Shown in pieces: positions 3,941-18,674 of a stretch of 58,994 bases of DNA. Where the stretch lies: the NCBI RefSeq assembly GCF_937965895.1, contig NZ_CALCKS010000178.1; one strand, given 5' to 3'. The translations under genes and the position numbers were made by a program. Under the pieces are notes generated by a model. The model was given only the letters and a program-made list of their open reading frames with translations. It was not told where the DNA came from and searched no databases. This DNA comes from an uncultured Campylobacter sp. (GTDB taxonomy: Bacteria > Campylobacterota > Campylobacteria > Campylobacterales > Campylobacteraceae). Position 1 is the stretch's first letter. Each line of letters starts with the position of its first letter.

Positions 3941-6164
3941 CTTTTATATCCTTTAGTATCAATTTATATCTATCTAAAGCCTGCTCTTTATTTTCTATAT
4001 CGCTAACTAGGGAGCTTATCTCTTCATCATATTTTACAAAAATAACATTTGCCACGTCTTGGGATTTAAACGAACCAATCAGCGCATCGACGCTAGATTT
4101 TACGTCGCTCCTTACTCTGCTTTTTAGATTTCTGGCAAATTCGCCCGCAGCGCTTAAAAACTGCTCGGCTTCGTAACCTTTTAGGGTACCGCTTTTTTGT
4201 AGTTCTTTCGGAAACGAACCGCTATAGTTGATATCCGGGTTTTTGACCGAGTTCAAAGTCCCCCTTATCGTACGAGAAATAATAACCGGATCTAATACGT
4301 CGTCGTCCACGACACTTCTAGCCGAGGATACTAATGATTTATAGAGGCTCTTTTTCCATTCTGCTATGTTTTGTCTATACTCTATCTCGGTTAAATTTTC
4401 TACCTCGGATATGACTTGATCGAGAGAATTTTTGACGTAACCGGCTTTTACGGTGGTTCTGGTGCTGTATTTTGTTTTGTATCTATCACCAAAAAGTCCC
4501 CATAAATTTGTAAATCCATTATCTTTGACTTTGTAACTATATTCCTCTGTAGCTTCGCTGCTAGCTATATCGTCGGTTAGCTTTTTAAAGTAGCTTTCCA
4601 CTTTGGCAAAAAGCCTGTCTTTGATATTTAGCTCAAATCCTTCAATAGAGTCTTCGTATGCGGTATTTACAGCCTCTACGGCTTTTGATTTGATTTTTAT
4701 CATTTGCTCTCTTTGACGCTTAATCTCGTTTATATCAGAGCTTTCCAGTATTTGCATCTTTTCTTGAATTTGCTGTTCTACAGCTTGTTGATAATTGAGT
4801 AAATTTTTAGACTTAACCGAGATAAACTCTGCGCTTCTTTTTTGTAAAATTTCCTCTTTTTTCTCTTTTACTTTTGAGACTATTTGCTCAATCGCCTTTA
4901 TGCCCGATAGCAAATTTAAATTTGCTAAAGCAGACTGTTTGTCGTCGAAATAGTCTCGATAAAAGTGATTTAAATTTCCCCAAACATGCTTTGAGTTTAA
5001 ATCCCAGTTGCCTTGATCGTCATAGTTTTTCATCATATAAAACGCTGCCGCCGAACTTAAAAGAACTTTGCTATCTATAAGCTCATTTAGACTGTCGCCC
5101 ACTTCCGGACTTTGAGCTTTTATCTCTTTTAAAACCCTTGACTGCTGGGCGCTTAAGGTTTCTCTTATATTGTCAAGTACTTTTGGTAACAAACCGCCAC
5201 CTTTTTCTTTTTCACTGCCAAAGAGTTGGTTGTCTACCTGAGATGCCACTAGGTATACTTCTCTGATGCCGTCTTTTTTAGTGACGCGGTCGAGTAAATT
5301 CGTATCCTCCGAGCTTAAAAACTGGCCGGAAGGCGAAACGACTAACACCACGTCGCAAGTTTTCAAAAGCTGTTTTGTGCGCTCCTCTCTTGAGACGACG
5401 GGATCATTTACGCCGGGGGTATCTATTATCTCTATATCTTTTAGACTTTCCTTATCTAGTTTTAGCGTTACGGATTTTGTAAAGGGCATATATTTGCCAT
5501 CAGCGCCGACAAAATCGTAAAGCTTGCGATTTAGCTCGTCCATGTTAGCAGCAGAGATGTTTTTAAATCCCTCTAAATTTGCTAAATTTACCCCAGAACG
5601 CTCGATACGCTCGTATTGCTCGGCGGCTGCACTTAAAGCTGCGTCATTGCGCATCTCTTGTTCGGCGATACTCATCGCCCTTTTTCGTAGCTCGGCTTCT
5701 TTTTCTTGATCTAGTTTTTTAAAATTTAGCTTTTGCTTTCTTTTTTCAAGCTCTACTAGCTCGTTAAATTTAACTTCGGCTATTTCGTTTTTTCTTTTTT
5801 GAAAATTTGCCGCATTTTCTTTGATATCCCGCAAGTCCTCTTCGCTAAAAAAATCGACCTGCGCTTCCAAATTTTGCCCATATTTTAAAACCGTAAGTGC
5901 AGCTGTCATCGGAGTAGCAGCCTTTGGTAACACATCTTCGCCCTCAAAAATAAGTGCATTTATAAGAGAGCTTTTGCCTGATTTTACTCGTCCTATGATT
6001 CCTAGCTTTAGCGTTCTACCATCTTTTTGCATAGCTTCTAGTTCAGCTTCTAGTTCTGAACTTTTTGAGACAGAATTATCTTGTTTTAAAAGTGAAACTT
6101 CATTACCGAGGTCGTATTTGGCTATGATGGCTTCAAGCTCTTTAGCAAATTTAACTACGTTCAT
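3924..6164 (-). CDS. Bacterial dynamin-like GTPase
   Basis: GRVKSGKS P-loop, PMTA switch Thr, DTPG, long helical stalk. Confidence 0.9.
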   Translation of the reverse strand: MNVVKFAKELEAIIAKYDLGNEVSLLKQDNSVSKSSELEAELEAMQKDGRTLKLGIIGRVKSGKSSLINALIFEGEDVLPKAATPMTAALTVLKYGQNLEAQVDFFSEEDLRDIKENAANFQKRKNEIAEVKFNELVELEKRKQKLNFKKLDQEKEAELRKRAMSIAEQEMRNDAALSAAAEQYERIERSGVNLANLEGFKNISAANMDELNRKLYDFVGADGKYMPFTKSVTLKLDKESLKDIEIIDTPGVNDPVVSREERTKQLLKTCDVVLVVSPSGQFLSSEDTNLLDRVTKKDGIREVYLVASQVDNQLFGSEKEKGGGLLPKVLDNIRETLSAQQSRVLKEIKAQSPEVGDSLNELIDSKVLLSSAAAFYMMKNYDDQGNWDLNSKHVWGNLNHFYRDYFDDKQSALANLNLLSGIKAIEQIVSKVKEKKEEILQKRSAEFISVKSKNLLNYQQAVEQQIQEKMQILESSDINEIKRQREQMIKIKSKAVEAVNTAYEDSIEGFELNIKDRLFAKVESYFKKLTDDIASSEATEEYSYKVKDNGFTNLWGLFGDRYKTKYSTRTTVKAGYVKNSLDQVISEVENLTEIEYRQNIAEWKKSLYKSLVSSARSVVDDDVLDPVIISRTIRGTLNSVKNPDINYSGSFPKELQKSGTLKGYEAEQFLSAAGEFARNLKSRVRSDVKSSVDALIGSFKSQDVANVIFVKYDEEISSLVSDIENKEQALDRYKLILKDIKDAGRR

Positions 6165-6173
6165 TTTTGGTCC

Positions 6174-7871
6174 TTACTTATATAGAATTTGAGTTGCTAG
6201 TGTCCTGATTGCCTCTTTTGCATTTTCAAGAGCTAAAATTTGAGCTTCTATAGCCTGCATATCTTCGCTTTTTTCTTCTATGACTTTTGATATTTCGGTT
6301 TCTTTTTGCCGTAGCTGCTCTTCAAATTTATCGCTTACAACCTCTATCATAGCGCTTATTTGCTCGTTTAGTAGTGCGGGCATCTCGCTTCTAAGCTTAG
6401 ACTTGATAGAAGGTATAACGTTGCTTATTATCTGATCTCTAGCCTGTTCGCGTTTCTTGTTTTCGGCGTATCCTTGAGTAAAAAACGAGATAATATCTGG
6501 CAAAAATATAATGATAATTTCTAAAAGAGGATTTACAACTGCCGTAGTGAGACCCATGATCGTGGTTATAACTTTGTATATTTTACCTGCATTTTCGCCA
6601 CTTTTAAGCTTCTCACTAAAATCTACAAGTCCATTTTGGGCTTTTTGTAAAAATTCTTTTGTCGTTTGTGAAATTTTTTCTATCCATACGTCATCTATCT
6701 TAAAATCAGTCAAATTCAAGCTTCTCATCTCGAGACTAAAGTTATCTACTAGCTGCGAGCCAATATCGCTCATTTTACTTTTTATTTCTCGCACGAGCGA
6801 TGTTTTTATTATGCCGTTTAGTTCAGTACTAAAACCTTGCTGGTTGGTGGCGGCGAGCCCTGCTAGAGCGTCTATATTCATATTTATATCGTTAGCAACC
6901 GCTGCAATAACGGAATTTACGCTACCGTCTGAATATCTGCTTTGTATCTCGTTAAGTGCGGTTTGCTTTTTAGCTTTTAATTTTTCTATACCCAACTTTA
7001 GCTCGTTTATAGCGTTTTGTGCGTCTTCTTTGGAACTTTTTAGGGCTGATTTAGTCGTATCAATAGCGCTTTGGGCTTCAAATGAATTTTGTTTTAATTC
7101 GTTTTCAAAGATACTTTTAAAAAGTCCTTTTGAATCAATTTTTTCGAGTATATTTTTTAACTCGTCGCCACTGTCAAGCCCGAGGGCTATAACACCTTTT
7201 TGGTAATCAAAATAATCTCTTAATTGCTCTTCTATCCTATTTTGTATCAAATTTACGTCGCTAGGCGCTCTTAAATTTGCCTTACTTATACAAAACGAAA
7301 AGCCTTTGCCGAATGCGTTGATATTTTGTATTTCTCTAAGCACACTATTTGTTATATTGCCATCCTCAACACTGATTAACACTATAAAATACTTACCCTT
7401 GCTTAAGTAACTTAAAATTGCTTGGTTGTGTAGCTGTACTGGCGAGTCAAAGCCTGGCATATCAACAAGTACGAGCGGTGCAATAGCTTTTAAATTTGCG
7501 TTATTTAGATAAAGACGTAGAAATTTATACTCCGCAGCCCGATCTTTGATCTCGTCTGTTTGAGTAAGATCATATCTATCGCTATCGCCGCTTTCTTTTA
7601 CTGCCTCAAAATAACTTTCTTCACCGTATCTTAGCTCGGTCGCAAGCGCGGTTTCTGGAGTAATGTTTGTAGGCAATACGCCTGAGCCTAGAAATGAGTT
7701 TATTAGAGTACTTTTACCTGCGCTAAAGCCGCCTACAACGGGCACGATAAGCTCTGTTGCTCGCAAAGAGCCTATTAGCTCTTCCTGTTTTTTTACGTCA
7801 AATTTTAGAGGACTTAGTATCGCTGACACGTCTTGCAAGTATTTAATATATGTTTGCTTTAAAATTTGCAT
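6174..7871 (-). CDS. Bacterial dynamin-like GTPase with hydrophobic paddle segment
   Basis: GGFSAGKS, PETA, DMPG, SKAN; hydrophobic stretch VITTIMGL...IIIIFLPDII. Confidence 0.9.
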   Translation of the reverse strand: MQILKQTYIKYLQDVSAILSPLKFDVKKQEELIGSLRATELIVPVVGGFSAGKSTLINSFLGSGVLPTNITPETALATELRYGEESYFEAVKESGDSDRYDLTQTDEIKDRAAEYKFLRLYLNNANLKAIAPLVLVDMPGFDSPVQLHNQAILSYLSKGKYFIVLISVEDGNITNSVLREIQNINAFGKGFSFCISKANLRAPSDVNLIQNRIEEQLRDYFDYQKGVIALGLDSGDELKNILEKIDSKGLFKSIFENELKQNSFEAQSAIDTTKSALKSSKEDAQNAINELKLGIEKLKAKKQTALNEIQSRYSDGSVNSVIAAVANDINMNIDALAGLAATNQQGFSTELNGIIKTSLVREIKSKMSDIGSQLVDNFSLEMRSLNLTDFKIDDVWIEKISQTTKEFLQKAQNGLVDFSEKLKSGENAGKIYKVITTIMGLTTAVVNPLLEIIIIFLPDIISFFTQGYAENKKREQARDQIISNVIPSIKSKLRSEMPALLNEQISAMIEVVSDKFEEQLRQKETEISKVIEEKSEDMQAIEAQILALENAKEAIRTLATQILYK

Positions 7872-8212
7872 ATGTGTTCCTTATGGTGAAGTTTATTGAT
7901 TTTTGAGTGATTAAATTTGATGAAAGATATTTGTCTCTAGAGTTACCCCCCCCATCGGTTTTTCTAATTTTACCTGCATTTTACCTTCTTTTGGTGTTAC
8001 TAATGAATTTATTCTGTTAATTATAGTTTTAAAATCATTAATCTATGCTTTTATGTTGTTTAAAATTACAAACTGCATTTTATGATTTTTTATGCTATAT
8101 CTTTCAGCGTTTTTCTCGGTATTTTTTAACTTCTTTGCTGTTTTTTTATTTGATATTGTATAAATTCAAAGCAAGCTTGGTCCAAATGTTGTCCTTGCCT
8201 GCTTTATACTGC

Positions 8213-8404
8213 TTAGATGCCGGCGGCGTACCCAGATGGATACTCCTCTTGCTCATCGCTTTCATCTTCATCGGCCAAAACAAGATCCGCTTCCTTATTT
8301 TTTTCGTCACTAGTTTCATCAAATATCCCGTATTCGTCGGCATAAGTCTTTAATCCGTATCCAATAGCTAGTAGTGCTACGCCTCCTATGATATACTTTA
8401 GCAT
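8213..8404 (-). CDS. Small membrane-anchored acidic protein at the head of the dynamin operon (possibly the 5' part of a decayed longer gene)
   Basis: AAGGAG RBS; N-terminal hydrophobic helix IIGGVALLAIGYGL followed by a D/E-rich tail. Confidence 0.55.
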   Translation of the reverse strand: MLKYIIGGVALLAIGYGLKTYADEYGIFDETSDEKNKEADLVLADEDESDEQEEYPSGYAAGI

Positions 8405-8604: not shown

Positions 8605-9531
8605 ATGCAAAAACCTAAAAAAATCATCCCCGAAACCAGCACAAGTAAATACGAGCGTATAAACGATATAGCCGTTCTTATCAGCAACAAGCCGCACTCC
8701 ATCTCCGAGCTTTCCGAGAAACTCGGTGTTTGCACTAAAACCATACAAAGAGATCTTTATGACGTGCTAGCCAAAAACGGAGCCGTAAAAAAAGGTAGGA
8801 TGTGGAGCATGGATAAAACCGAGGCCAAAGATAACCTAGATCAAGAAGAGCGAACTATCATAAATATCTTAGATAATATCTCAAAAACTATGGGTGCAAA
8901 TTTCTATTCAAAGGCTCACGTCTTGCTAGAGCAGATCACTAGCCGGCTAAACCACCCTATACTAACCAATATAAACAACGAAAAGCTAGACGAAAAAGAC
9001 TTTGCAAATTTCGAACTACTTGAAAACGCCATCAAAGAAAAAAGACTGGTGGAGTGCGAGTATAATAACTTTAAATTTAAGACAAAACCTTTAAAGCTAG
9101 CGATGTTTGACGGGTTTTGGTATTTGCTTTTTCTTGATACGGGCAAAAACGATACATTTAAAAAATTTCATCTAAAAAGCATTGCGAGCATTAAAATACT
9201 TGAAGATAAATTTGAGATAGAGGCAAAAATAGAAGATAGGCTAAAAAATATAAACTCCGCATGGGCGACGCTAGATGAGCCAAAGATAGCCAAGCTGCTT
9301 TTAGCGCCGCAGATAAAGAAGTATTTTGAGAGAAAACCATATGCCAAGCAAAGCATATACGGCGAGGATCCAGATGGCTCCATCGTCATCGATATAGAGT
9401 ACACCAACATAATGGAGATCAAACCACTCATATACTACTACATCCCATTTATCAAGGTGCTTGAACCAAAGGAGCTAGCAGATGAGCTAAGAGATGAGAT
9501 AGAGGAGTATTTTAACGAGATAAATGTCTAA
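8605..9531 (+). CDS. HTH-WYL-WCX transcriptional regulator (WYL1)
   Basis: N-terminal HTH (ELSEKLGVCTKTIQRDL), FDGFWYL, C-terminal KVLEPKEL. Confidence 0.92.
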   Translation: MQKPKKIIPETSTSKYERINDIAVLISNKPHSISELSEKLGVCTKTIQRDLYDVLAKNGAVKKGRMWSMDKTEAKDNLDQEERTIINILDNISKTMGANFYSKAHVLLEQITSRLNHPILTNINNEKLDEKDFANFELLENAIKEKRLVECEYNNFKFKTKPLKLAMFDGFWYLLFLDTGKNDTFKKFHLKSIASIKILEDKFEIEAKIEDRLKNINSAWATLDEPKIAKLLLAPQIKKYFERKPYAKQSIYGEDPDGSIVIDIEYTNIMEIKPLIYYYIPFIKVLEPKELADELRDEIEEYFNEINV

Positions 9532-9677: not shown

Positions 9678-10196
9678 TTAAATTTTTTTGGCCTTTTTAT
9701 AAAATTTTTTGCATACAGATTTATACTTTTTTACCCTGCTTAGGAAATCTAAGAAATTTAAAAAAATTCGCCTTTTCATGCCTGAGCTTAAAGCGCTTTT
9801 TATAGCTGTTTTGATCTGTTTTTTACTAAGTATATTTTGCTTACAAAGTAAGAAATAATTATTTATCTTAAATCTTTTTATCTGTTTTACGATGATCTTT
9901 CTGGTAAGCTTTTTATCGTTTAAATTTTCATAGATGCTTCTAGCTATATAAAAATGTTCCATAGGATATTTACATACTTGCAACGCCCTTTTTAGGATAG
10001 TTTTTATTATCTTTTTCCTATTTTCGTTATTTTCAAGCTCATCAAAAGCTAGCCTTGCCAAATACAAATACTCTCTAAAATCCTCACATTTTGACAGGAT
10101 ATCGTTCAATTCGCTAGAAAGCAGTTGTTTTGGCTTTACAGACGATATAAAATCACTAATCTCCATATACGGCCTAAGCCCCCAGAATCTTTTCAT
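9678..10196 (-). CDS. Lys-rich helical-repeat hypothetical protein
   Basis: GGAG RBS before MKRFW; repeats like YIARSIYENLNDKK resemble those in 10951 and 56099. Confidence 0.6.
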   Translation of the reverse strand: MKRFWGLRPYMEISDFISSVKPKQLLSSELNDILSKCEDFREYLYLARLAFDELENNENRKKIIKTILKRALQVCKYPMEHFYIARSIYENLNDKKLTRKIIVKQIKRFKINNYFLLCKQNILSKKQIKTAIKSALSSGMKRRIFLNFLDFLSRVKKYKSVCKKFYKKAKKI

Positions 10197-10209
10197 ATTT
10201 GCTCCATAA

Positions 10210-10944
10210 TTAACCATTTTCTATATTCTTTCCAAATTTTTCAACTCTAATAATAAAATTTAAGAATGGAAAAATTTGTTCATATCTATCAAAATGCCTG
10301 CTCGTATCAAGCTTGTAACTTATGACAAAATTCGGCATTTGACTTTTTGCAAATTTTAGTTCATCAAACAATCTTTGCGCATTTTCGATCGCACTAGGAA
10401 ATTTATCATTTTGACATTTCTTACTTTTATCATAAGTCAAATATGACGGAACGATCATAAAAGCTATCTTATAAAACACTGTATTTTTTCTCTCGTAAAC
10501 CGATAAATTTTGAAACGTCAAATGCGATATTTGTTTGATTGCATTAAACCATCTATTGCAATAACATTGTTCAAAGCTATTAGTAGAAAAATTATGCCAG
10601 CCGTGTTTCACTTCAAAAAGATACATTGCATTATTATCGCCGTACATCGTCGCAAGATCTATAAATCTTTGTGTCTCATCATTGCCCGTTTCTTGTCTAG
10701 CTCTTTTATTTACTCTCTTAAATGGCTGTTCCAACCAAACAACCCCAGTGAGCTTATGAATAGCTGGCACAAGAGCTGAAAAAGACTGTTTTTCATTGGT
10801 TAAAAACGGATAGTCGTTCCATACTTCATTTATTTTAAAATTCTCTTTTATAAAATTTTTAACCACTTCTTCCAAAAAATCTCTTGCCTCTGACTCATTG
10901 TTTTCATAAACATATAAATTTCTTTCATAAAATTTTTCCATCAC
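10210..10944 (-). CDS. Putative PD-(D/E)XK-fold nuclease
   Basis: E..(RF)ID...FEVK pattern; RBS AAGGAG. Confidence 0.55.
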   Translation of the reverse strand: MMEKFYERNLYVYENNESEARDFLEEVVKNFIKENFKINEVWNDYPFLTNEKQSFSALVPAIHKLTGVVWLEQPFKRVNKRARQETGNDETQRFIDLATMYGDNNAMYLFEVKHGWHNFSTNSFEQCYCNRWFNAIKQISHLTFQNLSVYERKNTVFYKIAFMIVPSYLTYDKSKKCQNDKFPSAIENAQRLFDELKFAKSQMPNFVISYKLDTSRHFDRYEQIFPFLNFIIRVEKFGKNIENG

Positions 10945-10950
10945 ATCTCC

Positions 10951-12207
10951 TTAAATTTGATTTACCACGTCAATTATACCATTTTTTACTATCTCTATCG
11001 CCCATCCTTTATCCTTGAAAATATCCAAAACATCAGTAGCTGCATGTAAAATTTCTGTTCTGGTTTTGGCATTTTCTACGGCTTTTACTGCGCACTCTTT
11101 GGCTAAATTTGGATTGATATTTTTTAAGTAGCTAGCGATCCTCATATAGCTAGGATCGGGCATGCTTAGTAGCTTTTCACAAGCCATATCTAAAAGCTCC
11201 TTATCGCCAAGTTCTTTTAAGATATCAAGCACAAAAAACGTCTCTCTAGGATCTGGCAAGAGTTTCACGGCTTTATCTAAAAATTCTTTTGCATAAATTT
11301 TATCTTTAAAATCCATCATAACGCTACTTGCCACATAAGCATAATCGGCCGCGGTTTTGGCATAAATTTCTCCGTCTTTATAAAGCTCTAATATCCATCT
11401 TTGCTTGCCGAATTCTTCCGCCATATCATCTAAAACATCGTAGAATTTATAAAAGTCGCTTGTCTCACTTAGCTCGCTTAGATATTCGTCTTTGTTTTTA
11501 TGTTCTTTTGAAGCTACAGCCTCTTTTTGCTCTTTTCGTTTCGGTTTTATGCCGAGTGCTTTTAGCTCACCTCTGTCCTTTATAAAAACGTGAGCATAAC
11601 TTAGATAGAAGTCATGTTTGTCTTTCTCTATGCACTTTTTATAAAATTTATAGGCAAACTCATCAAAGCCTCCTATTTGCTTTAGCTCCAGCGCCATATC
11701 GAGATAAAAATCCGCCTTAAAATCGGTTGCCGTTAGCGCAGTTTGCAAAAAATTTTCGGCCTTAAGTCCGTTTAGTGTTTTTATCTCTATAAAATTTAGC
11801 ATATTTATATAGCAAAGTCCATTTTTTATGCTATTTTGAGCTATTTCTGAAAGACTTTTACACCATTTTTTAGCTCTTAAAGTTTTATACATAGCCATCG
11901 CCAAGTATGAATAGTCCATGCCGCTTTTACAAAGGTCTTGCGCGATTTTATAAATTTTTATCGCTAGGCCTCTATTTTTGCTTTTAAAAAACACTGCGCG
12001 AGCTAAATCATCATACTCAAAAAGATGATGATTTACCCTCAAACAAAGCTTTGTGTGGTTTTGTAAAAGGTAGTCAAGCTTGTCTTGGCTTAGGTTCTTA
12101 GCTAAATTTACCAGCAATGCACTGTCATCTATAATATAATCTGCATAATAAATCCTGCAACATCTGCAAAATTTATGAATCCGCTCGTAGCGTCCGGATA
12201 AATTCAT
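10951..12207 (-). CDS. Alpha-solenoid (TPR-like) repeat protein, paralogue of 56099..57850
   Basis: Shared block DYSYLA...WCK...CYINMLNFI...DF.A.FY; AAGGAG RBS before MNLSG. Confidence 0.7.
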   Translation of the reverse strand: MNLSGRYERIHKFCRCCRIYYADYIIDDSALLVNLAKNLSQDKLDYLLQNHTKLCLRVNHHLFEYDDLARAVFFKSKNRGLAIKIYKIAQDLCKSGMDYSYLAMAMYKTLRAKKWCKSLSEIAQNSIKNGLCYINMLNFIEIKTLNGLKAENFLQTALTATDFKADFYLDMALELKQIGGFDEFAYKFYKKCIEKDKHDFYLSYAHVFIKDRGELKALGIKPKRKEQKEAVASKEHKNKDEYLSELSETSDFYKFYDVLDDMAEEFGKQRWILELYKDGEIYAKTAADYAYVASSVMMDFKDKIYAKEFLDKAVKLLPDPRETFFVLDILKELGDKELLDMACEKLLSMPDPSYMRIASYLKNINPNLAKECAVKAVENAKTRTEILHAATDVLDIFKDKGWAIEIVKNGIIDVVNQI

Positions 12208-12221
12208 ATTTTCTCCTTTGT

Positions 12222-12809
12222 CTAAAATTTTAACGTAGCTATACACTCAAAAATCTCTTTTTGTACAAAATTTCCATCCGTATCAAGCGTATAGTTTTTG
12301 CCTAAAAAACATAGTTTAAAGCCCGTTATCTCGCCAAAAACGGGTAGCGATTTCGTCTTTTGATAGTAGTCTTTAACGATTTTAGAGATTATATTTAGCT
12401 GCTCGTCTAGAGCCTTAAAACATAGTTCATCTAAAAACGGCGTTAGGCTGATATACCTTAGGTGCTGCACCATGGCAAGGGCGAAAATTGGCTCGTTAAA
12501 TCTCTTAAAATTTGTATCTATGTAGATATAAGAGCCTCTAAATTTCGCTCGCTCGTCGTAACGGATTTTTGCGGCATTAAGCTCGTCTTCGATATTAAGC
12601 CCAAAGTGCTCGCTAAGAGCAAGGACAAGCGTTTTTGAGCTATGCGACCAGTCAAAATGCCCCTTTGACATAAACTCATCTAAGCTATTTGCTCTTTGCA
12701 AATTCGCAAGAGCACTACTGAAGTTCTTTTCTCTTGCGTAACCTAGTGCCTTTGAAAGTGCCCTTTTATCGCTATTTAGCGTTAGTTCTTTTATTTGTTC
12801 GTAGATCAT
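12222..12809 (-). CDS. Hypothetical protein
   Basis: 195 aa ORF with AAGGA RBS; decayed paralogue at ~19980-20116. Confidence 0.7.
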   Translation of the reverse strand: MIYEQIKELTLNSDKRALSKALGYAREKNFSSALANLQRANSLDEFMSKGHFDWSHSSKTLVLALSEHFGLNIEDELNAAKIRYDERAKFRGSYIYIDTNFKRFNEPIFALAMVQHLRYISLTPFLDELCFKALDEQLNIISKIVKDYYQKTKSLPVFGEITGFKLCFLGKNYTLDTDGNFVQKEIFECIATLKF

Positions 12810-12856: not shown

Positions 12857-13255
12857 TTAAATGCCCGTAGCTAAAAGCCACACCTTGATTTTTTCGCCTA
12901 AAAGCTTATGAGTCTTTATGTTAAAGACTATTTTTGATTTTTTACTACAAATTTGTTCCACCTCCTTTACTATTTTTAATACTACTTCTAGCGGCATTTC
13001 AGGATTTGCCGTAAAATTTAAGGCCACAAATTTTGCTCTTTTTATAGGTAACTCCGCAATCTTTTGTAAAATTTCCTCTTCCGTAAAAGTACCGCTAAAG
13101 CCCATTATCTCACCTTTTGCGTTTAAAACGTTTTTTAAGTCTTTTAAGTCCATAACCGCCTTTCTTGATACCCTATACAAACAAGCTTCAAAAAATTTTA
13201 GGAAAAATGGCAAAAAACCGTCAAATTTCTTAGATAGTGTTACGGTTTTACTCAT
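12857..13255 (-). CDS. Stand-alone FtsZ C-terminal-domain-like protein
   Basis: MDLKDLKNVL (T7/H8-like), IKRAKFVALNFTANPEMPL, KIVF, KIKVWLLATGI; compare FtsZ GARGVLVNIT...ELRVTVVATGI. Confidence 0.7.
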   Translation of the reverse strand: MSKTVTLSKKFDGFLPFFLKFFEACLYRVSRKAVMDLKDLKNVLNAKGEIMGFSGTFTEEEILQKIAELPIKRAKFVALNFTANPEMPLEVVLKIVKEVEQICSKKSKIVFNIKTHKLLGEKIKVWLLATGI

Positions 13256-13300
13256 TTAGCATTAATTTGCCGGGTAGTTCCGGCAAAAACTCATTCAAAA

Positions 13301-15294
13301 CTATCCTTTAAACCCCGCTATGCGGCCGTTATTTTCGATATTCTTATGTTTTATTTCCTCGTTTAGCCTATCTATAAATTCGCCCGTGCTTAAAATAGGG
13401 CTAAATTTAGCCGATCTTGCTACCGCGGCAAAGTCCCCGGGCGTTAGAAATTTGATTTTTGCTACGCTATTTTTTGCCGTTTTATCTACGCTTATACCTA
13501 GCGACTCGCACTCTTTTTGTAGTAGCTTTGCCGCCTGTGCGCCCTCCATGTATCCAAACTCGATCTTCATATCAAAGCGCCTGATACTAGCCCTATCCAG
13601 CCTATCCATCAAATTCGTCGTGGCGATAAACACCCCATCAAAGCCCTCCATCTGCACTAGCATCTCATTTACTTGGGTTATCTCCCAGCTTCGCGCAGCC
13701 ATACTTCTATCTTGCAAAAAGCTATCTATCTCGTCAAATACCAGCACGGCGTTTTGATCTTTGGCTTCTTTAAAAGCGTTTGCGATGTTTTTCTCCGTGT
13801 TTCCCACGTAGCAGTCGATGAGATCGCTTGCTTTTTTGATGATTAGCTTGCTTTTTAGGCTTTTGGGATAAATTTGGCATACTCGCTCTTGCCAGTACCG
13901 GCCGGACCGTAGAGGCAAAGCCTAGCGTTTTTGCTCTCTTTTATACCTTTTGCCAGCTCTTTTAAATTTGCGCTTGCATTTATCAAACTCACGTCGTAGT
14001 TTTGCGGCAAATTTATCTCCTTGTTTTTATCTTTCTTGCCTTTTTTAGCAGTAACAAAACCTTGCGCTTTTAGGCTACTTTTTATCAAATTCTTAAACGC
14101 TTCATCCTTGCTTTCATGACTTAAATTTGAAACGACTTTTGTCGCGCCAGATATTAGCGCAGGCGTGATAGCTCTGTTTTTAGCTAGCTTTTTGAGCAAC
14201 TCCTCGCTTACTTGGCCGTTTGCGTAGCGCTTTAGTATTTCTAGTCGCTTAAATTTGGGCGGGATTTTAAACTCTATAACTATATCAAAGCGCCTGATAT
14301 AGGCGTTATCTATCTCGTCTATGTCGTTGGTTATCCAAAATGTCGGTACGCTATTGTTCTCTAAAGTCGAGTTAAATAACGCTTTAGACATCCTTTCTGT
14401 GCCTTTAAAAACATCCTCTATCTCGTCAAACATTATGATGTCGCGCTCTTTATTTAAAACCTTGTCCGCAGTTTTTAGCGATAAAAATCGCTTTTCACCG
14501 CTATAATTATCGTCTGTATATCGGCTTTTTGAGGCTATTTCATAAAGATTTCTGTCTAGCTCGGTGGCTATCATTTTGACAAACTCGGTCTTACCCGTGC
14601 CGGGAAGTCCGTAAAGCAAAATATTTACGCCCTTATCCGCCTTTAAAATATGGCTTTTTATAGCGGCTTCGTCTACTTTTATATGCCTAAAATCGTCAAA
14701 TTTGAGCGGTGACTTGCCAGCTTTAAAAAACGTCGATCTAAAAACCTCTAAAATGTCGCCCTGAGCGTTTAACATATCTGTGCTAAAGTAGATGTAAAAA
14801 AACTTAAATACGCAATCAAGCCTGATATCTTGCCTATCGTGCATTTCTAAAATATTGCTTTGTCTTAGCTTTGATTCAGGATGTAACGCTTCTTTTACAT
14901 GTGTGGCAGGCACGCCAATAATATAGCCCAAAACCTCGTAAAAAGCTATGATATGCATATTACCTAGAGGCCTAAAAACCTCTCCTAGGACGGCAAATTC
15001 ATTTACTATCACGGCAAATTCGATGATTTTTCTGTCTACTTCGTCTAAATTTAGCACCGCACATAAAGCATCCAAATTCCTATCTAAAGTCTCAATGCTG
15101 GTTATTTTTGATTTTTCAAGCTCGGCAAGGCGTTTTTTTAGCCTAACTTTTGCCTTGGCTATGGATTCGCCTTTTTGCAAGATGTCGTCGTATCTTTGAA
15201 AAAAACTATCGGGCAAGCCAAATTTTTCGATCGCTCTTAGCGCCCAAAGTTTGATTTTATTTTCGATCTGGGGCGGTAGTAAAATCTCATCCAT
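13301..15294 (-). pseudogene. Double-AAA+ ATPase, split by a 1-bp frameshift near 13865
   Basis: Two Walker A motifs (GLPGTGKT, GPAGTGKS); ATC CCA AAA GCC TAA versus ATC GCC AAA AGC CTA in the intact paralogue 50212..52230; could also be a sequencing error. Confidence 0.85.
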
Positions 15295-15331
15295 GGCAAC
15301 TCCTTTTTTGGATGATTTTACTTGCATTTTA

Positions 15332-15347: not shown

Positions 15348-15378
15348 AAATTTAACAAATTTGATTGCCGATCGTCGG

Positions 15379-15936
15379 TCAAATTTCTATAATATTAAGC
15401 CCTAGACTTGAGTTATATATCTTGCAGTTGCCGATTTTATCGACTCTTGATAGCGGATAATGTACATGCCCGCAAAGGATAATTTTTGCCTTCATGAGAC
15501 CGTATTTAAGCGCCCTATAAAGCTCTTTATCTCCAAAATCTCTGCCGCACTCAACGGCCGTTTGCGTGTGAGCGGGCGGGACATGCGCGAGCAGCACGTC
15601 GCACTCTGCAAAGTCCAAAATATCCGTACACATATAAGGAACGCAGCCGAATTTTATGCCTTCAATCATCTTTATATCGCCGTCTGCGTAAATGTTTGGC
15701 ATCCTCATCCAAGCGGCATCGCTAGAGCCGTCTACGTCGTGGTTGCCGCTACATACAAAGATCCGTCCTTTAAAATTTTCAAGCCACTGCCTAACCCACG
15801 CCTTTTGTCCTGCGACGTCTTTTTGACTCGCGTCTATCAGATCGCCGCTTATGCAACAAACGTCAAATTCTAAATCTAAAATTTGATCAAATTTGGCCTT
15901 ATCAAAGTGCAAATCGCTTGCATGCAAAATTTTCAT
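15379..15936 (-). CDS. Calcineurin-like metallophosphoesterase
   Basis: SDLH, GDLID, GNHD, HVPP, GHVH motifs; start moved to MKILH behind AAGGA RBS. Confidence 0.9.
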   Translation of the reverse strand: MKILHASDLHFDKAKFDQILDLEFDVCCISGDLIDASQKDVAGQKAWVRQWLENFKGRIFVCSGNHDVDGSSDAAWMRMPNIYADGDIKMIEGIKFGCVPYMCTDILDFAECDVLLAHVPPAHTQTAVECGRDFGDKELYRALKYGLMKAKIILCGHVHYPLSRVDKIGNCKIYNSSLGLNIIEI

Positions 15937-15977: not shown

Positions 15978-16024
15978 GTTTTAAAATATATAATTTTATC
16001 AAATTTAACCAAAAGGAGAAAAGG

Positions 16025-16282
16025 ATGATTAAATTTGACGTTCGTTGCAGACTAAGCGAACTCCACGCTAAATTTAAAAGCGGCCTTGAAGTACCGACGG
16101 CATCCGTAAAGTCGCTAAAACTAGAGTTAAGCTCTGGCGACGATATCTCGCTTTTAGCTATCGTCAAAGCGGTAAATTTGATAAAAGGCGAGCTAAAAAC
16201 GGACGCTAAATTTCACTTCATAAATCAGATTTCGCCGCTAAAAAACGGCGAAATATCAGCAAATTTTACGCTCCTGGTTTAA
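16025..16282 (+). CDS. 85-aa protein, probable divergent FtsZ C-terminal-domain-like fold
   Basis: AAGGAG RBS; SVKSLKLELSSGDDISLLAIVKAVNLIKGELKTDAKFHF...ISPLKNGEISANF follows the FtsZ_C pattern. Confidence 0.55.
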   Translation: MIKFDVRCRLSELHAKFKSGLEVPTASVKSLKLELSSGDDISLLAIVKAVNLIKGELKTDAKFHFINQISPLKNGEISANFTLLV

Positions 16283-17124
16283 CCCAGGAGCATCCTTAAT
16301 CCCTCAAGTCCTCCAGCCTTTATCGCCATGCCTCGATATGCGCTTACGTGAGTATCTACCGGGTTTATGCGGATTAGATGAGCCATTTTAAATCTTTTCG
16401 CCATCCTTTCTCCAAAAATCCTGATAGTTGGTACGGCAAGCCCAGCTCCGATCTCGATTATAACTATGCGCGAGTTCATATTGTGGCTAAGCCACGCATC
16501 GTACTTTTTGCGTTGCGCCCAAGCTCTTTTATGGTTAAACTCGTGATCGTAAAACATAAGGATATTTGGACGGCTCACGCATCCGCACTCTGGGCAAACT
16601 GGCATCTTTGTAGCGACAAATTTCTCCTCGTCCACTTCCACGCTATTTTCGTCCATATTCCAGATGTTTCCGTCATCGTTGTGGATACACTGAGCGTAGT
16701 GAATGGAGCCGTGGACTTCATAAATTTTATCTTTGTCAAATCCCGCCTTTGTAAAGTGTCCGTCGACGTTTGAAGTGTAGATAAAGTAGTTTCCATTTTT
16801 GGCTTCGCAAAGATTTTTTAGTAGCGCAAAGCCCTCGTGGGGTTGGGTTTTGTTATAAAGCTTTAGCCTGTGTCCGTAAAACGCCCAGGCTAGCTCAGGA
16901 CTGCTAAAAAACCACTGCGGATTTGCCATTTCTGTAAAGCTTAAATTTTTATCTTTTAAAGGCGGATAGGCTTTCCAAAAGCCAAGATCGCCTCTAAAAT
17001 CGGGCAGTCCGCTATCTACGCCCATGCCTGCTCCTGCGGTTATGATGACGGCTTCGGCGTTTGCGACGATTTCTTTTGCGCGGAGTATTGTGTCGTGTGC
17101 CAGCTCAAATTTGTCACTATCCAT
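16279..17124 (-). CDS. Sir2/sirtuin family NAD-dependent enzyme (copy 1)
   Basis: GAGMGVDSGLPDFRG, SNVDG, EVHGS, CPECG, RPN. Confidence 0.92.
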   Translation of the reverse strand: MDSDKFELAHDTILRAKEIVANAEAVIITAGAGMGVDSGLPDFRGDLGFWKAYPPLKDKNLSFTEMANPQWFFSSPELAWAFYGHRLKLYNKTQPHEGFALLKNLCEAKNGNYFIYTSNVDGHFTKAGFDKDKIYEVHGSIHYAQCIHNDDGNIWNMDENSVEVDEEKFVATKMPVCPECGCVSRPNILMFYDHEFNHKRAWAQRKKYDAWLSHNMNSRIVIIEIGAGLAVPTIRIFGERMAKRFKMAHLIRINPVDTHVSAYRGMAIKAGGLEGLRMLLG

Positions 17125-17173: not shown

Positions 17174-17188
17174 AGACACTTTTTGTCT
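17174..17188 (-). promoter_or_regulatory. GAC-N7-GTC box upstream of sir2 copy 1
   Basis: AGAC-ACTTTTT-GTCT; TATAAT (minus, 17162-17157) 11 bp downstream. Confidence 0.7.
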
Positions 17189-18674
17189 ATTTTGCCACCT
17201 CACGCAGTTTTTCTAAAACCTTAACCATAGCTAGCGTATCGAGTTTGCAGTATTCCAAAAGCGCCTTTCTAATCATGTCTTGCTCGCCCCTGGTTTTGCC
17301 TTTTAGTTTTGCGTATTCACTCATGGCTTCACCGCCGTTATGGATTAAATTTAAATTTGTATACGCATCCTTAAAACCAGGTACTATGGCCGGTAGAACT
17401 TTCTTGATGGATGAGCTTCCGTACATTTTTGGGTGATAATAAAATTTCTTTGCAAACGGTATTTCAAGGTCTTTGATGTTGCTATGTATATTCATAAGAT
17501 GAGATGATAATTGCGGAAACAGTGTAGCTTAATTCTGTATCACCCCCTTTTCAAAACTAGCATGATAGGCTAGCACGCAGGCATCTTGTGGGATAAATTT
17601 GATCAAATTTAATGCCAGCTCGTATCTAGGATCGGCTCCGACCTCGGCTAAAAACTCAAAATACTCCAAATTTCCCTTGCCGTCATCTTTGTGGATAGAA
17701 AACTGAAAAGGTATCTGCTCATATGGCCTAAGACCTACAAACTCAGGCACGGCCTGCTGAAATGTCTCAAAGTCAAGATGATATAGCGGATAGCTAAGCG
17801 TGTCCAAAAACTCCTTAATTGCTACTTTATCAATAAATTCCTCCCCATTAATTTGAGCTTTTATTTGTATCTGCTGATTTGTGTTAAAGGCGTCTATGTC
17901 TTTGATGTCTGCAATATTTACTATCCCGTCTTGATAAAACTCGGTCGCTTTTTTCTTACTGATCTTTGTGATATTAAAAACAGAAGTCCCATCTGGTATA
18001 TTTCTTTGCTCGCGCCAGCAGTGATTCATCCCATCGTACTCATAGGGCTTAAAACAATGCGCCCCTATGTCTAAATTTGGCTCAACATCATCGCCTATAG
18101 TCCTTTTTAACTTTTTGATGTTTTCAGCCACTTTGCTTTGCATAGACACAATTCGATTCGTTACATCTTTTATAACAAATAGCTTATCAAGCTCTAGCTT
18201 CTCGCCGCGAATGTGTTGATTATTTAGATGTATCACATTAATGTACTCCACATCATATCCCAGTGAGCTAATGACATAGTACTGGATGCTCACGTCATCT
18301 ATATAGACATCGGACAAGCTCGTGCTACTTTTTCCCTCGTTTATGATGAGTTTCCCACCAACGACTTGCAAGATATCCACCATAACTAAAATTTCATCAA
18401 AACAAAATGTCGCTTCATATATTGCTTTTTCGCCTTTTTTTATAAAATTTTTAGTTTGAGCTATCTTTTCACTAAAGCTACTGCCATCAAATTCTATCCT
18501 TTGACTGCCGCCAAATAGCTCACAGGCGAGCTCTCCTATCATGTTTCCGGTCTCGAATATGGCAGGATCTGTATTTTATTCCAAAACATCAGGCTTATAC
18601 TTTTTAAGCCAAAGCGACTTTGAACACTGAAGGTCTCGTACGTAGAGGGATTTTGATAAAAATTTATTGCTCAT
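17187..18674 (-). pseudogene. DUF2779-type nuclease, frameshifted twice
   Basis: Collinear with intact 45720..47198; start MSNKFLSKSLY at 18674; breaks near 18575 and 17530. Confidence 0.85.

Follow-up and report, generated by a model that had tools for sequence, protein, structure and literature searches.

An uncultured Campylobacter sp. carries a real gene, under purifying selection, for a free-standing C-terminal domain of FtsZ, referred to below as FtsZ-C. The gene was found in the window analyzed here, a single stretch of 58,994 nucleotides (contig NZ_CALCKS010000178.1). Free FtsZ C-domains of this kind form a small family without a name, under purifying selection and carried in variable islands and mobile elements. 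As to function, we infer tentatively, and at somewhat less than even chances, that FtsZ-C docks on the nucleotide face of FtsZ and pauses division, as a dominant-negative microprotein.

An earlier note on this DNA had described a 132-aa ORF at 12857..13255 (minus strand) containing DLKD, AKFVALNFTANPEMPL and a terminal KIKVWLLATGI, and had remarked on the missing GTP-binding N-domain. The ORF was found as described, with no GGGTG-type motif in it. Its length stood only in part: the 132-aa frame is present, but the protein probably comprises 98 aa, starting from the ATG at position 13153, with the first 34 codons of the ORF left untranslated. An AAAGG sequence lies 5 nt upstream from this ATG, and 98 aa is the called length of most FtsZ-C homologues. 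When eight Campylobacter sequences including the window were aligned, the frame opened by the upstream ATG ended after 8 codons in the seven other loci; the 132-aa frame arises because two indels, peculiar to the window among the eight sequences, fuse frames. In the AlphaFold2 model of the ORF, pLDDT falls below 50 at residues 1-14 and 23-35. Comparison of seven orthologs (21 pairs) gave a median dN/dS of 0.19, and variable columns were distributed over the three codon positions as 19/9/28. The coordinates of the gene and of the features around it are collected in Table 1.

Table 1. Features of the window around the FtsZ-C gene.
Feature	Position	Strand	Basis or remark
X179, which ends the gene run; no known family	9678..10217	-	Library searches
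X244, possible PD-(D/E)xK-type nuclease (motif only)	10210..10944	-	D96, E111 and K113 invariant in 7 sequences
X431, helical protein, no known family; overlaps the end of X195	10951..12246	-	Library searches
X195, conserved 195-aa protein, no known family	12222..12809	-	47 nt 3' of the FtsZ-C gene
Probable true CDS of FtsZ-C, 98-aa free-standing FtsZ C-terminal domain (MDLKD...LLATGI)	12857..13153	-	ORF, AAAGG 5' of the ATG, homologue lengths, Pfam, fold, dN/dS
Window-specific lengthening of the 132-aa ORF at its 5' end; probably leader and promoter, untranslated	13154..13255	-	Ortholog alignment, pLDDT
Candidate sigma-70-like promoter (TTGACG, 18-nt spacer, TAAAAT)	13195..13224	-	Consensus scan, 10/12 matches
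12-nt box GAAATTTGACGG, overlapping the -35	13218..13229	-	One other exact copy in the window, 15376-15387 (-), 5' of the AAA gene
Inverted repeat TTGCCGG-N6-CCGGCAA (7 bp, perfect), in the gap from the AAA stop to the promoter-like site	13267..13286		Sole exact copy in the window
Double AAA+ ATPase gene, here two ORFs (13855-15327 and 13301-13918)	13301..15327	-	Two AAA domains; 1-nt deletion near 13866
Metallophosphoesterase of 185 aa (start MKILHASD), 5' of the AAA gene	15379..15936	-	Pfam Metallophos, E 1.6e-12
SIR2-family protein	16279..17124	-	Pfam SIR2, E 2.3e-21; phrog_2162, E 2.3e-64
HTH-WYL-WCX transcription regulator, convergent with the operon end	8605..9531	+	Pfam WYL, WCX and HTH_11; PADLOC WYL, E 6.2e-23

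The proposal that the ORF encodes a free FtsZ C-terminal domain, beginning at the T7 loop and devoid of a GTP-binding domain, was backed by profile search, Foldseek and VIA; the first two of these comparisons had been suggested along with it. The only Pfam match of the ORF was FtsZ_C (PF12327), at 25.7 bits and E 1.4e-5, with residues 62-132 aligned to positions 24-94 of the 95 in the profile. This score (25.9 bits in the genome search) lies under the gathering cut-off of 27 bits; relatives rise above it, with 33.6 bits for the copy of the Arcobacteraceae genome G592 and a precomputed PF12327 match on many cluster representatives. The TIGR00065 ftsZ profile aligned with the ORF over positions 235-324 of 353 (E 0.0012; 18.2 bits, the cut-off being 295.2), and a profile of the stand-alone family found true FtsZ genes in 382 of the 401 genomes of the order, with E values down to 2.5e-22. 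BLASTP of the FtsZ-C protein against the FtsZ of its own genome was not significant (best E 3.1), and a search of PDB sequences gave a best E of 0.19. Real FtsZ C-domains share 34-38% identity with the Arcobacteraceae member. Judging from its sequence, the Campylobacter FtsZ-C is an old, diverged copy and no recent ftsZ fragment.

From residue 51 on (51-130), the AlphaFold2 model has pLDDT values of about 85-91. Foldseek against the PDB returned FtsZ in all of the best 50 rows, with a lowest E of 4.5e-8, and entry 1w5f was among the fold matches. The VIA alignment with FtsZ had a Z of 11.6 and an rmsd of 2.4-2.7 Å over 96 residues, model residues 37-132 corresponding to FtsZ about 209-316; the same residues superpose on 210-315 of E. 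coli FtsZ (entry 6ll6). The four-stranded sheet with flanking helices expected of a domain superposable on FtsZ about 210-316 is thus present in the model. Oliva, Cordell and Löwe are said to have found in 2004 that the two FtsZ domains fold independently. Profile and fold together back homology, and the window protein is therefore a diverged member of the FtsZ_C domain superfamily.

The synergy (T7) loop of FtsZ carries the motif NxDxxD. The DxxD of FtsZ-C (MDLKD) aligns with the DFAD of the own-genome FtsZ, and the alignment of the model to 6ll6 places D36 and D39 of the ORF at the residues that we take to be D209 and D212 of E. coli FtsZ. The loop Asn is missing because the protein begins there. 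Throughout two FtsZ-C alignments, of 10 and 8 rows, the second Asp never varies and its partner is always D or E, and the group consensus lines agree; P0133 and P0136, two common Arcobacteraceae variants, lack the first Asp. Three neighbors of the Asp pair that are invariant in FtsZ (N215, F218 and A219 in the numbering of the own-genome protein) are gone or replaced in FtsZ-C (M/V, L, K/E). At the other end nothing follows ...LLATGI, which aligns to the last strand of the globular FtsZ core: there is no linker, and no C-terminal peptide of the kind to which membrane tethers bind. The true ftsZ of the genome sits on a separate contig, next to what reads like ftsA.

The FtsZ-C gene was detected in 9 of the 142 genomes of the genus, and the family comprises 40 close homologues and 141 family clusters. 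Its branches are only 23-48% identical, yet start and end are fixed. In the searches made, all members bearing a taxon name were Campylobacterota (Campylobacter, Arcobacteraceae), the remainder being a few short metagenome contigs without a name; a contig scan gave at least five close Campylobacter loci. Plasmid and phage collections searched by tblastn with the 98-aa protein gave no match, viral contigs scanned with the Campylobacter alignment and the Arcobacteraceae protein held no relative, and none of the PADLOC-DB models (0 families) matched the ORF. An integrase gene and HTH_17 genes adjoin the module of G092; ParA-like (P-loop motif only), LPD7 and TraG-like genes lie near the copies of G483 and G560; and three dynamin-like genes, SIR2, McrBC and a UvrD-nuclease gene occur in the islands around FtsZ-C. 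Broken copies were found in L081 and G087. The downstream operon is present without FtsZ-C in G072 and accompanies an internally deleted copy in G087; FtsZ-C is therefore dispensable to its neighbors.

In both branches FtsZ-C opens a run of accessory genes. Copies of an Arcobacteraceae branch lie directly 5' of a WYL regulator gene of the BrxR type, which stands at the head of BREX- or DISARM-like operons. The regulator lies 5-40 nt 3' of FtsZ-C in G483, in G557 and in 10 of 18 metagenome loci, the other eight being mostly too short or broken copies; the cargo downstream of the pair varies. The WYL regulator of the window is about 31% identical to these proteins. Neither of the two WYL regulators used as queries matched any PDB sequence, and their class, BrxR-like or DriD-like, is therefore not separable by sequence. 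A 102-aa ORF upstream of the window WYL gene (8045-8353) was considered as a second FtsZ-C and rejected: it has no Pfam match and a hydrophobic, junk-like translation.

The Campylobacter run continues with X195, X431, a nuclease-like gene and X179. X195 is present in 41 of the 142 genomes of the genus and therefore often occurs without an FtsZ-C gene; an ESM Atlas search with it gave no lead (best score 0.78). X431 has matches in 16 of the 142 genomes, 13 of them long, and a 34%-identical homologue lies 3' of the FtsZ-C gene in G092. The slot of X244 is occupied in other genomes by a PDDEXK_4 protein; the one in G086 has 435 aa (E 5.2e-31), and BLASTP gave X244 no significant similarity to it. 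The AlphaFold2 model of X244, built from a 7-sequence alignment, is unusable (mean pLDDT 46.9), and the candidate nuclease assignment comes from the D...ExK motif. X195, X431, X244 and X179 had no match in Pfam, NCBIfam, PADLOC or PHROGs, nor did X281 in Pfam or PHROGs, the sole libraries used for it. On the far side of the AAA gene, the metallophosphoesterase, whose G086 ortholog is also 185 aa long, matched the PADLOC candidate PDC-S10 (E 3.6e-15), and a terminator-like hairpin (16229-16254) lies 3' of the SIR2-family gene.

The candidate promoter upstream of FtsZ-C has hexamers largely kept in the orthologs, with a spacer of 18 nt in the window and 17 nt in other loci; across the region overall, sigma-70-like sites were no commoner than in shuffles. 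Allowing at most one mismatch, the 12-nt box GAAATTTGAC[CG]G was matched 8 times against 1.9 expected, a number that none of 100 shuffles reached. Its occurrence upstream of both FtsZ-C and the AAA gene hints at co-regulation. The RNA fold of the inverted repeat has an energy of -14.6 kcal/mol (z -2.86) and locus L005 carries paired changes in both arms; the repeat may be either an RNA hairpin or a protein-binding palindrome.

The AAA ATPase that had been claimed as the neighbor of FtsZ-C is indeed encoded directly upstream. The base missing from the window gene is present in 8 of 8 ortholog loci (6 genomes), the G086 ortholog being intact at 665 aa, and the gene matches phrog_10401 over its full length (E 2.9e-137). 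PADLOC gave a weak IetA-like AAA match among the FtsZ-C neighbors. The functional tie to the ATPase and the single operon from 15332, claimed in the same place, found no support: a conserved hairpin and a promoter-like site lie between the genes, the divergent relative in G092 has no AAA gene nearby, and the common 12-nt box is all that hints at co-regulation.

Our best explanation for FtsZ-C is an action on FtsZ itself. The synergy-loop face of FtsZ-C would dock where an FtsZ monomer, or the end of a filament, exposes its nucleotide face and, having no nucleotide face of its own, FtsZ-C would block further longitudinal contacts; the retained Asp pair may in addition make the bound subunit hydrolyze GTP. 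Switching on the operon, for instance upon damage, phage attack or element transfer, would then make cell division pause. Precedents exist. E. coli FtsZ fragments of 30 aa from the longitudinal interface sites, that of the T7 loop among them, tend to be growth-inhibitory (PMC9245647); SulA, MciZ and T7 Gp0.4 block the longitudinal interface and division stops (PMC13423816); and in lineages without a full SOS system the WYL regulators DdaA and DriD switch on the division inhibitor genes aciT (PMC13010146) and didA (PMC9186387), respectively. The whole genome, 96% complete, gave no match to SulA (PF03846) at E 0.01 or better and no LexA above cut-off. A complex prediction for the 98-aa protein with the core of its own FtsZ (residues 10-325) and GTP scored 0.00; made without controls, it is evidence neither way. 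In favor of this action on FtsZ, and of the inducible SulA-like division inhibitor put forward in the earlier note, which is a plausible role, are the Asp positions, kept in most members, the tight pairing of the Arcobacteraceae branch with WYL regulators, and the lack of a SulA match and of a LexA above cut-off. The identity of the domain, the purifying selection on the gene and the mobile-element setting also count for the action on FtsZ. Several observations speak against it. The Campylobacter branch is very distant from FtsZ by both BLASTP (E 3.1) and PDB sequence search (E 0.19). The FtsZ-invariant neighbors of the Asp pair are absent or replaced, and in P0133 and P0136 the first Asp itself is lost; the role of the remaining Asp could be no more than to cap helix H8. 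An intact FtsZ-C is missing ahead of the downstream operon in G072 and G087, and a strong poison of division would sit uneasily behind a near-consensus candidate promoter that is not repressed. Finally, the setting in defense islands fits equally well with FtsZ-C serving as bait for phage inhibitors.

Compared with known systems, FtsZ-C shares with the FtsZ C-domain (PF12327), to which it is homologous by profile, the order of elements H8, S7, H9, S8, H10, S9, S10, the start at the synergy loop, in most members with DxxD, and the end at the ...ATG[IF] strand. It differs in being encoded alone, as a protein of 98-111 aa, in being shorter between S7 and H9 and in having lost the loop Asn; relative to full-length FtsZ it lacks the N-terminal GTP-binding domain, helix H7, the linker and the C-terminal peptide, and its genes lie in accessory islands, outside the division gene cluster. 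With SulA, MciZ, T7 Gp0.4 and lambda Kil (PMC13423816, PMC3961180), which are small proteins and either inducible or encoded on elements, FtsZ-C would have in common the proposed block of a longitudinal FtsZ contact. Unlike it, these inhibitors are unrelated to FtsZ in sequence. SulA, MciZ and Gp0.4 bind the synergy-loop (bottom) face of FtsZ, whereas FtsZ-C is that face, so that its binding site would need to be the nucleotide face on the opposite side. DidA, a membrane protein, works at a late division stage and is not known to act on FtsZ polymers. DidA/DriD of Caulobacter and AciT/DdaA of Acinetobacter are comparable in that a WYL factor is genetically coupled to a small division blocker in lineages without the classic LexA-SulA circuit (PMC13010146, PMC9186387, PMC4211646). 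Neither DidA nor AciT is related to FtsZ-C in sequence, however, and the WYL gene near FtsZ-C is of the BrxR type (HTH-WYL-WCX) and heads defense operons, its control of FtsZ-C being putative. Laboratory FtsZ pieces that contain a longitudinal interface site also inhibit E. coli growth (PMC9245647), but those are artificial constructs and FtsZ-C is a natural, conserved gene family. The FtsZ-like families without recognizable FtsZ_C/Tubulin_C of Makarova and Koonin (2010), as described in PMC9871819, are likewise natural FtsZ/tubulin superfamily members that combine a partial domain set with a scattered distribution; they keep the N-terminal GTPase part, whereas the FtsZ-C family is their mirror image and retains the C-terminal part only.

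Other readings of the gene were weighed against the same data. A doubtful but serious contender is that the fold was recruited for another purpose and contact with FtsZ was lost, FtsZ-C acting as a cofactor or anti-repressor of the WYL regulator in Arcobacteraceae, or of X195/X431 in Campylobacter. The new binding surface would be the side of the sheet against which helix H7 lies in FtsZ; by the model this side must be exposed in the free domain, and the long Foldseek and VIA alignments (residues 1-132) put the probably untranslated upstream peptide at the place of H7. The very tight spacing of the FtsZ-C/WYL pair (5-40 nt) above variable cargo and the strong divergence of the Campylobacter branch from FtsZ are both in keeping with such a role. 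However, the Campylobacter FtsZ-C is not beside a WYL gene, none being present in the stretches covered for G086 (20 kb) and G092 (12 kb); the neighbors differ between the branches and therefore one common partner is not evident. A recruited fold also leaves the synergy-loop start, kept in all branches, unexplained. The other main rival, which we regard as unlikely on balance, is a bait or decoy: FtsZ-C would display the synergy-loop face without polymerizing and either sequester an FtsZ inhibitor encoded by a phage or, once such an inhibitor is bound, alert the adjacent WYL regulator or nuclease operon, so turning defense on. The synergy-loop face is the surface attacked by known FtsZ inhibitors, and the defense protein CapRelEbc fires only on the Gp0.4-FtsZ complex (PMC13423816). 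FtsZ-C stands first in the BREX- and DISARM-like operons headed by BrxR, its Campylobacter counterpart heads an operon with a PDDEXK_4 or nuclease-like gene, and the islands with three dynamin-like genes, SIR2, McrBC and the UvrD-nuclease gene fit as well. A decoy, on the other hand, should track the surface of host FtsZ, to which the Campylobacter branch bears no similarity detectable by BLASTP; selection is purifying and not diversifying (dN/dS 0.19), no FtsZ-inhibitor phage of these hosts was identified here, and the operon downstream functions, or is at any rate retained, where FtsZ-C is missing. In its most specific form, a detached "integrated decoy" in which inhibitor-bound FtsZ-C would launch BREX, DISARM-like or nuclease defense by signaling, in Arcobacteraceae, to the adjacent BrxR-type WYL regulator or, in Campylobacter, to the X195-X431-nuclease operon, the idea is quite unlikely.

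It is very unlikely that FtsZ-C is a client or adaptor of the double AAA+ ATPase, which would remodel it or turn it over as part of one system. An AAA-AAA gene does stand directly 5' of FtsZ-C in five of six examined loci (window, G086, G118, G111 and G127), a 42%-identical one lies about 4 kb from the free FtsZ-C gene in G592, and the 12-nt box is common to the upstream regions of both genes. But G092 has FtsZ-C without any AAA gene in the 12 kb covered, G075 and G004 have an AAA-AAA gene in the stretches covered but no FtsZ-C match, nor has G093, where a partial AAA-AAA match runs to the end of the stretch, and the Arcobacteraceae FtsZ-C/WYL pairs have no adjoining AAA gene; in the window itself the hairpin and promoter-like site separate the two genes and the AAA gene is frameshifted. 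Most improbable of all is that FtsZ-C is what remains, without function, of an ftsZ duplication, or that it antagonizes phage tubulins (PhuZ/TubZ). Its sporadic distribution (9/142 genomes) and the broken copies in L081 and G087 would suit a remnant; purifying selection, maintenance across genera at 23-48% identity with start and end fixed, and a confidently predicted fold would not. Antagonism of phage tubulins, put forward in the earlier note, has the common superfamily fold and nothing else to recommend it, with no family match in the phage, plasmid and viral-contig collections. None of 27 phage records with an FtsZ-like match came under a Campylobacter or Arcobacter name or host, in a tblastn search with FtsZ, a query to which PhuZ is invisible.

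No description of stand-alone FtsZ C-domain proteins turned up in full-text searches of openly accessible papers. Should FtsZ be its target, FtsZ-C would be the first division regulator in nature made of FtsZ's own C-terminal domain, binding the nucleotide face where SulA, MciZ and Gp0.4 bind the synergy-loop face, and the Campylobacterota would gain a candidate brake on division that damage or phage could induce. If it serves as bait, the guarding of FtsZ would be tied to WYL control of BREX- and DISARM-like systems, the signals of WYL regulators being poorly known; as an integrated decoy, it would represent bacterial effector-triggered immunity that uses a copy of the guarded host protein. 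Whether FtsZ-C brakes division or baits inhibitors, the tight FtsZ-C/WYL gene pair offers a testable handle on BrxR-type regulation.

The 132-aa ORF at 12857-13255 (minus strand) is present as the earlier note had described it, with all the strings quoted there and no glycine-rich GTP-binding motif, and the proposal that it encodes a free FtsZ C-terminal domain (FtsZ-C) was borne out: Pfam FtsZ_C, a family profile, an AlphaFold2 model, Foldseek and VIA all point to FtsZ. The sole Pfam match of the ORF is FtsZ_C (E 1.4e-5; 25.7 bits, below the gathering score of 27), residues 62-132 aligning to profile positions 24-94 of 95. Residues 45-132 align to positions 235-324 of the 353-position NCBIfam ftsZ model. 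A search of the whole genome (2.63 Mb, 321 contigs, 96% complete) found FtsZ_C matches at just two places, this ORF and the true ftsZ, a 384-aa gene on another contig that scores 87.2 bits and lies downstream of a putative ftsA, named from reading its sequence. Direct sequence comparison between FtsZ-C and FtsZ is weak: BLASTP against the FtsZ of the same genome was not significant (E 3.1), and a profile of close homologues reached FtsZ chains of the PDB at E 0.19 at best, in a colinear match of residues 1-98 to 207-313. Three stronger tests agree on the identity of the domain. When the profile included distant stand-alone relatives, true FtsZ genes were matched in 382 of 401 genomes of the order, with E down to 2.5e-22; one stand-alone member from Arcobacteraceae is 34-38% identical to real FtsZ C-domains. 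The AlphaFold2 model (28-row alignment) has a pLDDT of about 85-91 from residue 51 on and the order helix, strand, helix, strand, helix, strand, strand. Finally, Foldseek against the PDB, a check proposed in the earlier note, returned FtsZ in all of the best 50 rows (top E 4.5e-8), and VIA superposed model residues 37-132 on FtsZ 209/211-313/316 (Z 11.6, rmsd 2.4-2.7 Å, 96 residues). In the register with the E. coli FtsZ entry 6ll6 (37-132 on 210-315), both Asp residues of the MDLKD motif fall on what we take to be the synergy-loop residues D209 and D212; alignment with the FtsZ of the same genome sets this pair opposite the DFAD of the synergy loop.

A DNA-level alignment of eight Campylobacter loci, including the window, showed that the frame from ATG 13255 is open in the window alone, being joined there to the next frame by two small indels; at the seven other loci the frame from the upstream ATG ends after 8 codons. 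In the 60 nt preceding ATG 13153, substitutions are mostly amino-acid-changing, as judged by eye. The 98-codon core that follows has a median dN/dS of 0.19 (21 pairs, 7 orthologs) and its variable columns are distributed 19/9/28 over the three codon positions. Locus L010 (genome G114), whose match spans residues 1-76 only, was left out of the dN/dS set because its 3' part fails to align. An AAAGG motif lies 5 nt upstream of ATG 13153, most homologues are 98 aa long according to gene callers, and the divergent members of the C. ureolyticus and G092 types likewise start one residue ahead of DxxD. Together, these findings point to a protein that most likely comprises 98 aa, with the synergy loop at its start.

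The fold and superfamily of FtsZ-C are already known; the family itself is nameless in all sources apart from automatic labels. A word-indexed search yielded 40 close relatives (79-96% identity across the aligned part), for which the sole source name was "hypothetical protein" from uncultured Campylobacter. An exhaustive search of 1.84 billion representatives gave just 10 proteins with E no higher than 0.001; these include stand-alone members of 99, 108 and 167 aa, a 250-aa member with two tandem copies and one true FtsZ. The tandem protein (P0044, from a 1.7-kb metagenome contig) has a synergy-loop-like start on each copy. A profile search limited to proteins of 53-293 aa produced 141 clusters, mostly 107-112-aa proteins of Aliarcobacter, Arcobacter and Poseidonibacter labelled either not at all or, automatically, "cell division GTPase FtsZ". 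Among 121 Arcobacteraceae genomes sampled, short stand-alone frames occur in 4, and 49 other matching genomes hit true FtsZ alone. Branches with 23-48% identity to one another have kept the second Asp, a Gly at the end of H8, the "AK" at the start of strand S8, a Pro following S8 and the terminal "TG"; at the position of the first Asp, cross-branch alignments show D or E, and two common Arcobacteraceae variants lack the residue. Full-text searches, in the portions of the literature that they reach, turned up no natural family of the FtsZ C-domain alone that heads defence or mobile-element operons and is paired with BrxR-type regulators.

In Campylobacter, a common one-strand gene order was seen in five of the six gene-bearing genomes with an examined locus (the window, G086, G118, G111 and G127): AAA-AAA (a double AAA+ ATPase), FtsZ-C, X195, (X281), X431, (X244 or a PDDEXK_4 protein) and X179, the X proteins belonging to no known family and being numbered by length in aa. 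The window is without X281. Metallophosphoesterase and SIR2 genes lie upstream of the AAA gene wherever the contig extends far enough, and three of the five genomes have a convergent WYL regulator at the far end. In genome G092, a 48%-identical FtsZ-C copy is followed by homologues of X431, X195 and X244; the module adjoins a phage-type integrase, two HTH_17 genes and a stretch that is tRNA-like by eye only, and the 12 kb fetched contain no AAA, SIR2 or WYL gene. Occurrence of the FtsZ-C gene in the genus is sporadic (9/142 genomes), X195 is present in 41 of the 142 and X431 has matches in 16, long ones in 13. Genome G072 has an X195-X431-nuclease-X179 run without FtsZ-C. In G087, an internal deletion of ~240 nt has removed most of the FtsZ-C gene and the AAA gene is absent as a whole; the locus (L065, contig G087:C10, 6984-7297) retains the FtsZ-C leader and last ~15 codons, and X195, X431, a PDDEXK-like gene, X179 and the WYL gene are still present. 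Other Campylobacter genomes also carry SIR2, WYL, X195, AAA-AAA, phosphoesterase and DUF2779 genes, arranged in a shuffled order. The region is a variable island and FtsZ-C the optional first gene of one of its operons.

At all five examined loci without FtsZ-C (L060-L064, in G075, G093, G004, G053 and G072), SIR2 adjoins the WYL regulator (~60 nt apart), with X195, the phosphoesterase and often AAA-AAA nearby in shuffled order; the pair and its neighbours may form a system of their own. The window also carries three dynamin-family genes, presumably akin to the LeoABC/Eleos type of defence gene set, and a second set of related genes (43207-44433, 50212-52230 and 56099-57850): a 672-aa double AAA ATPase that is intact and shares 43% identity with that of G086, a 583-aa protein with 37% identity to X431 in its N-terminal part, and a 408-aa gene of PDDEXK_4-like type.

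In Arcobacteraceae, genome G483 has a 111-aa FtsZ-C gene with an HTH-WYL-WCX regulator (BrxR type) 6 nt behind it, and next come an SNF2 helicase and an Eco57I-type methyltransferase of 1624 aa; nearby are an LPD7 gene, a TraG-like gene and a gene that is ParA-like by its P-loop motif alone. The FtsZ-C/WYL pair is also found in G557, and a WYL regulator lies 5-40 nt downstream of FtsZ-C at 10 of 18 metagenome loci. Of the other eight, four extend <70 nt past the gene, one extends 160 nt with no match, two are of a 46%-identity type (the one inspected, L081, is broken) and one matches residues 1-27 alone. At locus L067, BrxA and BrxB come after the pair. The L081 copy (5403-5661), of Arcobacteraceae type, is frameshifted and shortened with no WYL gene downstream of it; its contig carries a putative replication initiator and a putative DnaB-type helicase, named from N-terminal sequence only. 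The free FtsZ-C gene of G592 exceeds the Pfam cut-off with 33.6 bits. Its island also contains McrBC, a UvrD-nuclease gene, SIR2 and Macro genes and an AAA-AAA gene that shares 42% identity with its Campylobacter counterpart. SIR2, Macro and AAA genes are consecutive there (L058, G592:C1, 2795-6190), Macro occupying the slot taken by the metallophosphoesterase in Campylobacter.

Features of the window around the FtsZ-C gene
Feature	Position	Strand	Remarks
Three consecutive dynamin-family GTPase genes	1283-7871	-	885, 746 and 565 aa; Pfam Dynamin_N; just left of WYL gene
Candidate sigma-70-like site TTGACG-N18-TAAAAT	13224-13195		score 10 of 12
12-nt box GAAATTTGAC[CG]G	overlaps -35 of promoter candidate		exact second copy at 15376-15387, upstream of AAA gene; no third
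Perfect inverted repeat	13267-13286		between AAA stop and FtsZ-C gene; single exact copy in window
Several inverted repeats built on AAATTTGA/TCAAATTT	15350-15393 and 15999-16077		between SIR2, phosphoesterase and AAA genes
DUF2779 gene, split	17187-18542	-	337-aa and 102-aa ORFs on profile positions 1-84 and 99-126

As the earlier note had it, the AAA gene lies directly upstream of FtsZ-C, here in the form of two AAA-domain ORFs that overlap (13855-15327 and 13301-13918). Its G086 ortholog is an intact 665-aa protein with two AAA domains, and phrog_10401 matches the protein over its full length (E 2.9e-137). The split results from a 1-nt deletion at ~13866, within the 13855-13918 overlap; the missing base is present in all eight ortholog loci compared (6 genomes), and either a real frameshift or an error of assembly could account for the split. 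The DUF2779 gene, a single 459-aa gene in G086, is a second broken gene within 5 kb, 4 kb from the AAA-AAA gene. The perfect inverted repeat between AAA and FtsZ-C folds as RNA at -14.6 kcal/mol (z -2.86), with paired changes in both arms at Campylobacter locus L005. The sigma-70-like site, whose spacer is 17 nt in other loci, is only a candidate since the region is no richer in such sites than shuffled sequence (7 versus 7.9). The 12-nt box has 8 matches at ≤1 mismatch versus 1.9 expected, and its position upstream of both genes hints at shared control. It does not point to a single operon, such as the box-controlled one of the earlier note. The "box" meant there is probably the set of AAATTTGA/TCAAATTT repeats, one half-site of which recurs at the promoter candidate. 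X195 starts 47 nt past the FtsZ-C stop codon, and the genes after it overlap or abut.

FtsZ-C is an isolated, conserved interface domain of a self-assembling protein, and action on the parent FtsZ is the simplest reading of such a domain; we predict it tentatively, giving it somewhat less than an even chance. Since the protein has the surface with which FtsZ enters the nucleotide pocket of the adjoining subunit and is without a pocket of its own, it could bind FtsZ at the nucleotide face, on monomers or at the ends of filaments, and so halt assembly; GTP hydrolysis might be triggered by the Asp pair that it has kept. Fragments of E. coli FtsZ made in the laboratory are often inhibitory when they correspond to sites of the longitudinal interface (PMC9245647). 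Two WYL regulators switch on division inhibitors in lineages without a full SOS system (PMC13010146, PMC9186387). In the genome searched here, SulA is absent and no LexA scores above cut-off. A polyvalent-protein analysis found the FtsZ/MreB-inhibiting CbtA/YeeV domain confined to conjugative elements and proposed that, by possibly inhibiting or delaying division of the cell, it gives the element time to complete its replication (PMC5512222).

The tight pairing with WYL regulators could also reflect a cofactor role unrelated to FtsZ, which we consider rather unlikely. SulA, MciZ and T7 Gp0.4 target the synergy-loop face of FtsZ, and the complex of Gp0.4 with FtsZ sets off a defence protein (PMC13423816); a non-polymerising copy of this face in a defence island could therefore be a sponge or sensor bait. 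This seems unlikely, as a bait is at odds with the Campylobacter branch having lost sequence resemblance (BLASTP) to its own FtsZ. That the AAA-AAA ATPase acts on FtsZ-C as its client, as suggested earlier, is now very improbable: G092 keeps FtsZ-C with no AAA gene in the 12 kb fetched, a hairpin and a promoter-like site part the two genes, and in Arcobacteraceae FtsZ-C pairs with WYL genes. Selection on the gene and conservation across the family make a dead remnant unlikely. The suggested antagonism of phage tubulins finds no support: of 27 phage records that have an FtsZ-like match by tblastn with FtsZ, a search that would miss PhuZ, none carries a Campylobacter or Arcobacter name or host. 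The main interest of FtsZ-C is that a protein of 98 residues allows a direct test of either leading reading.
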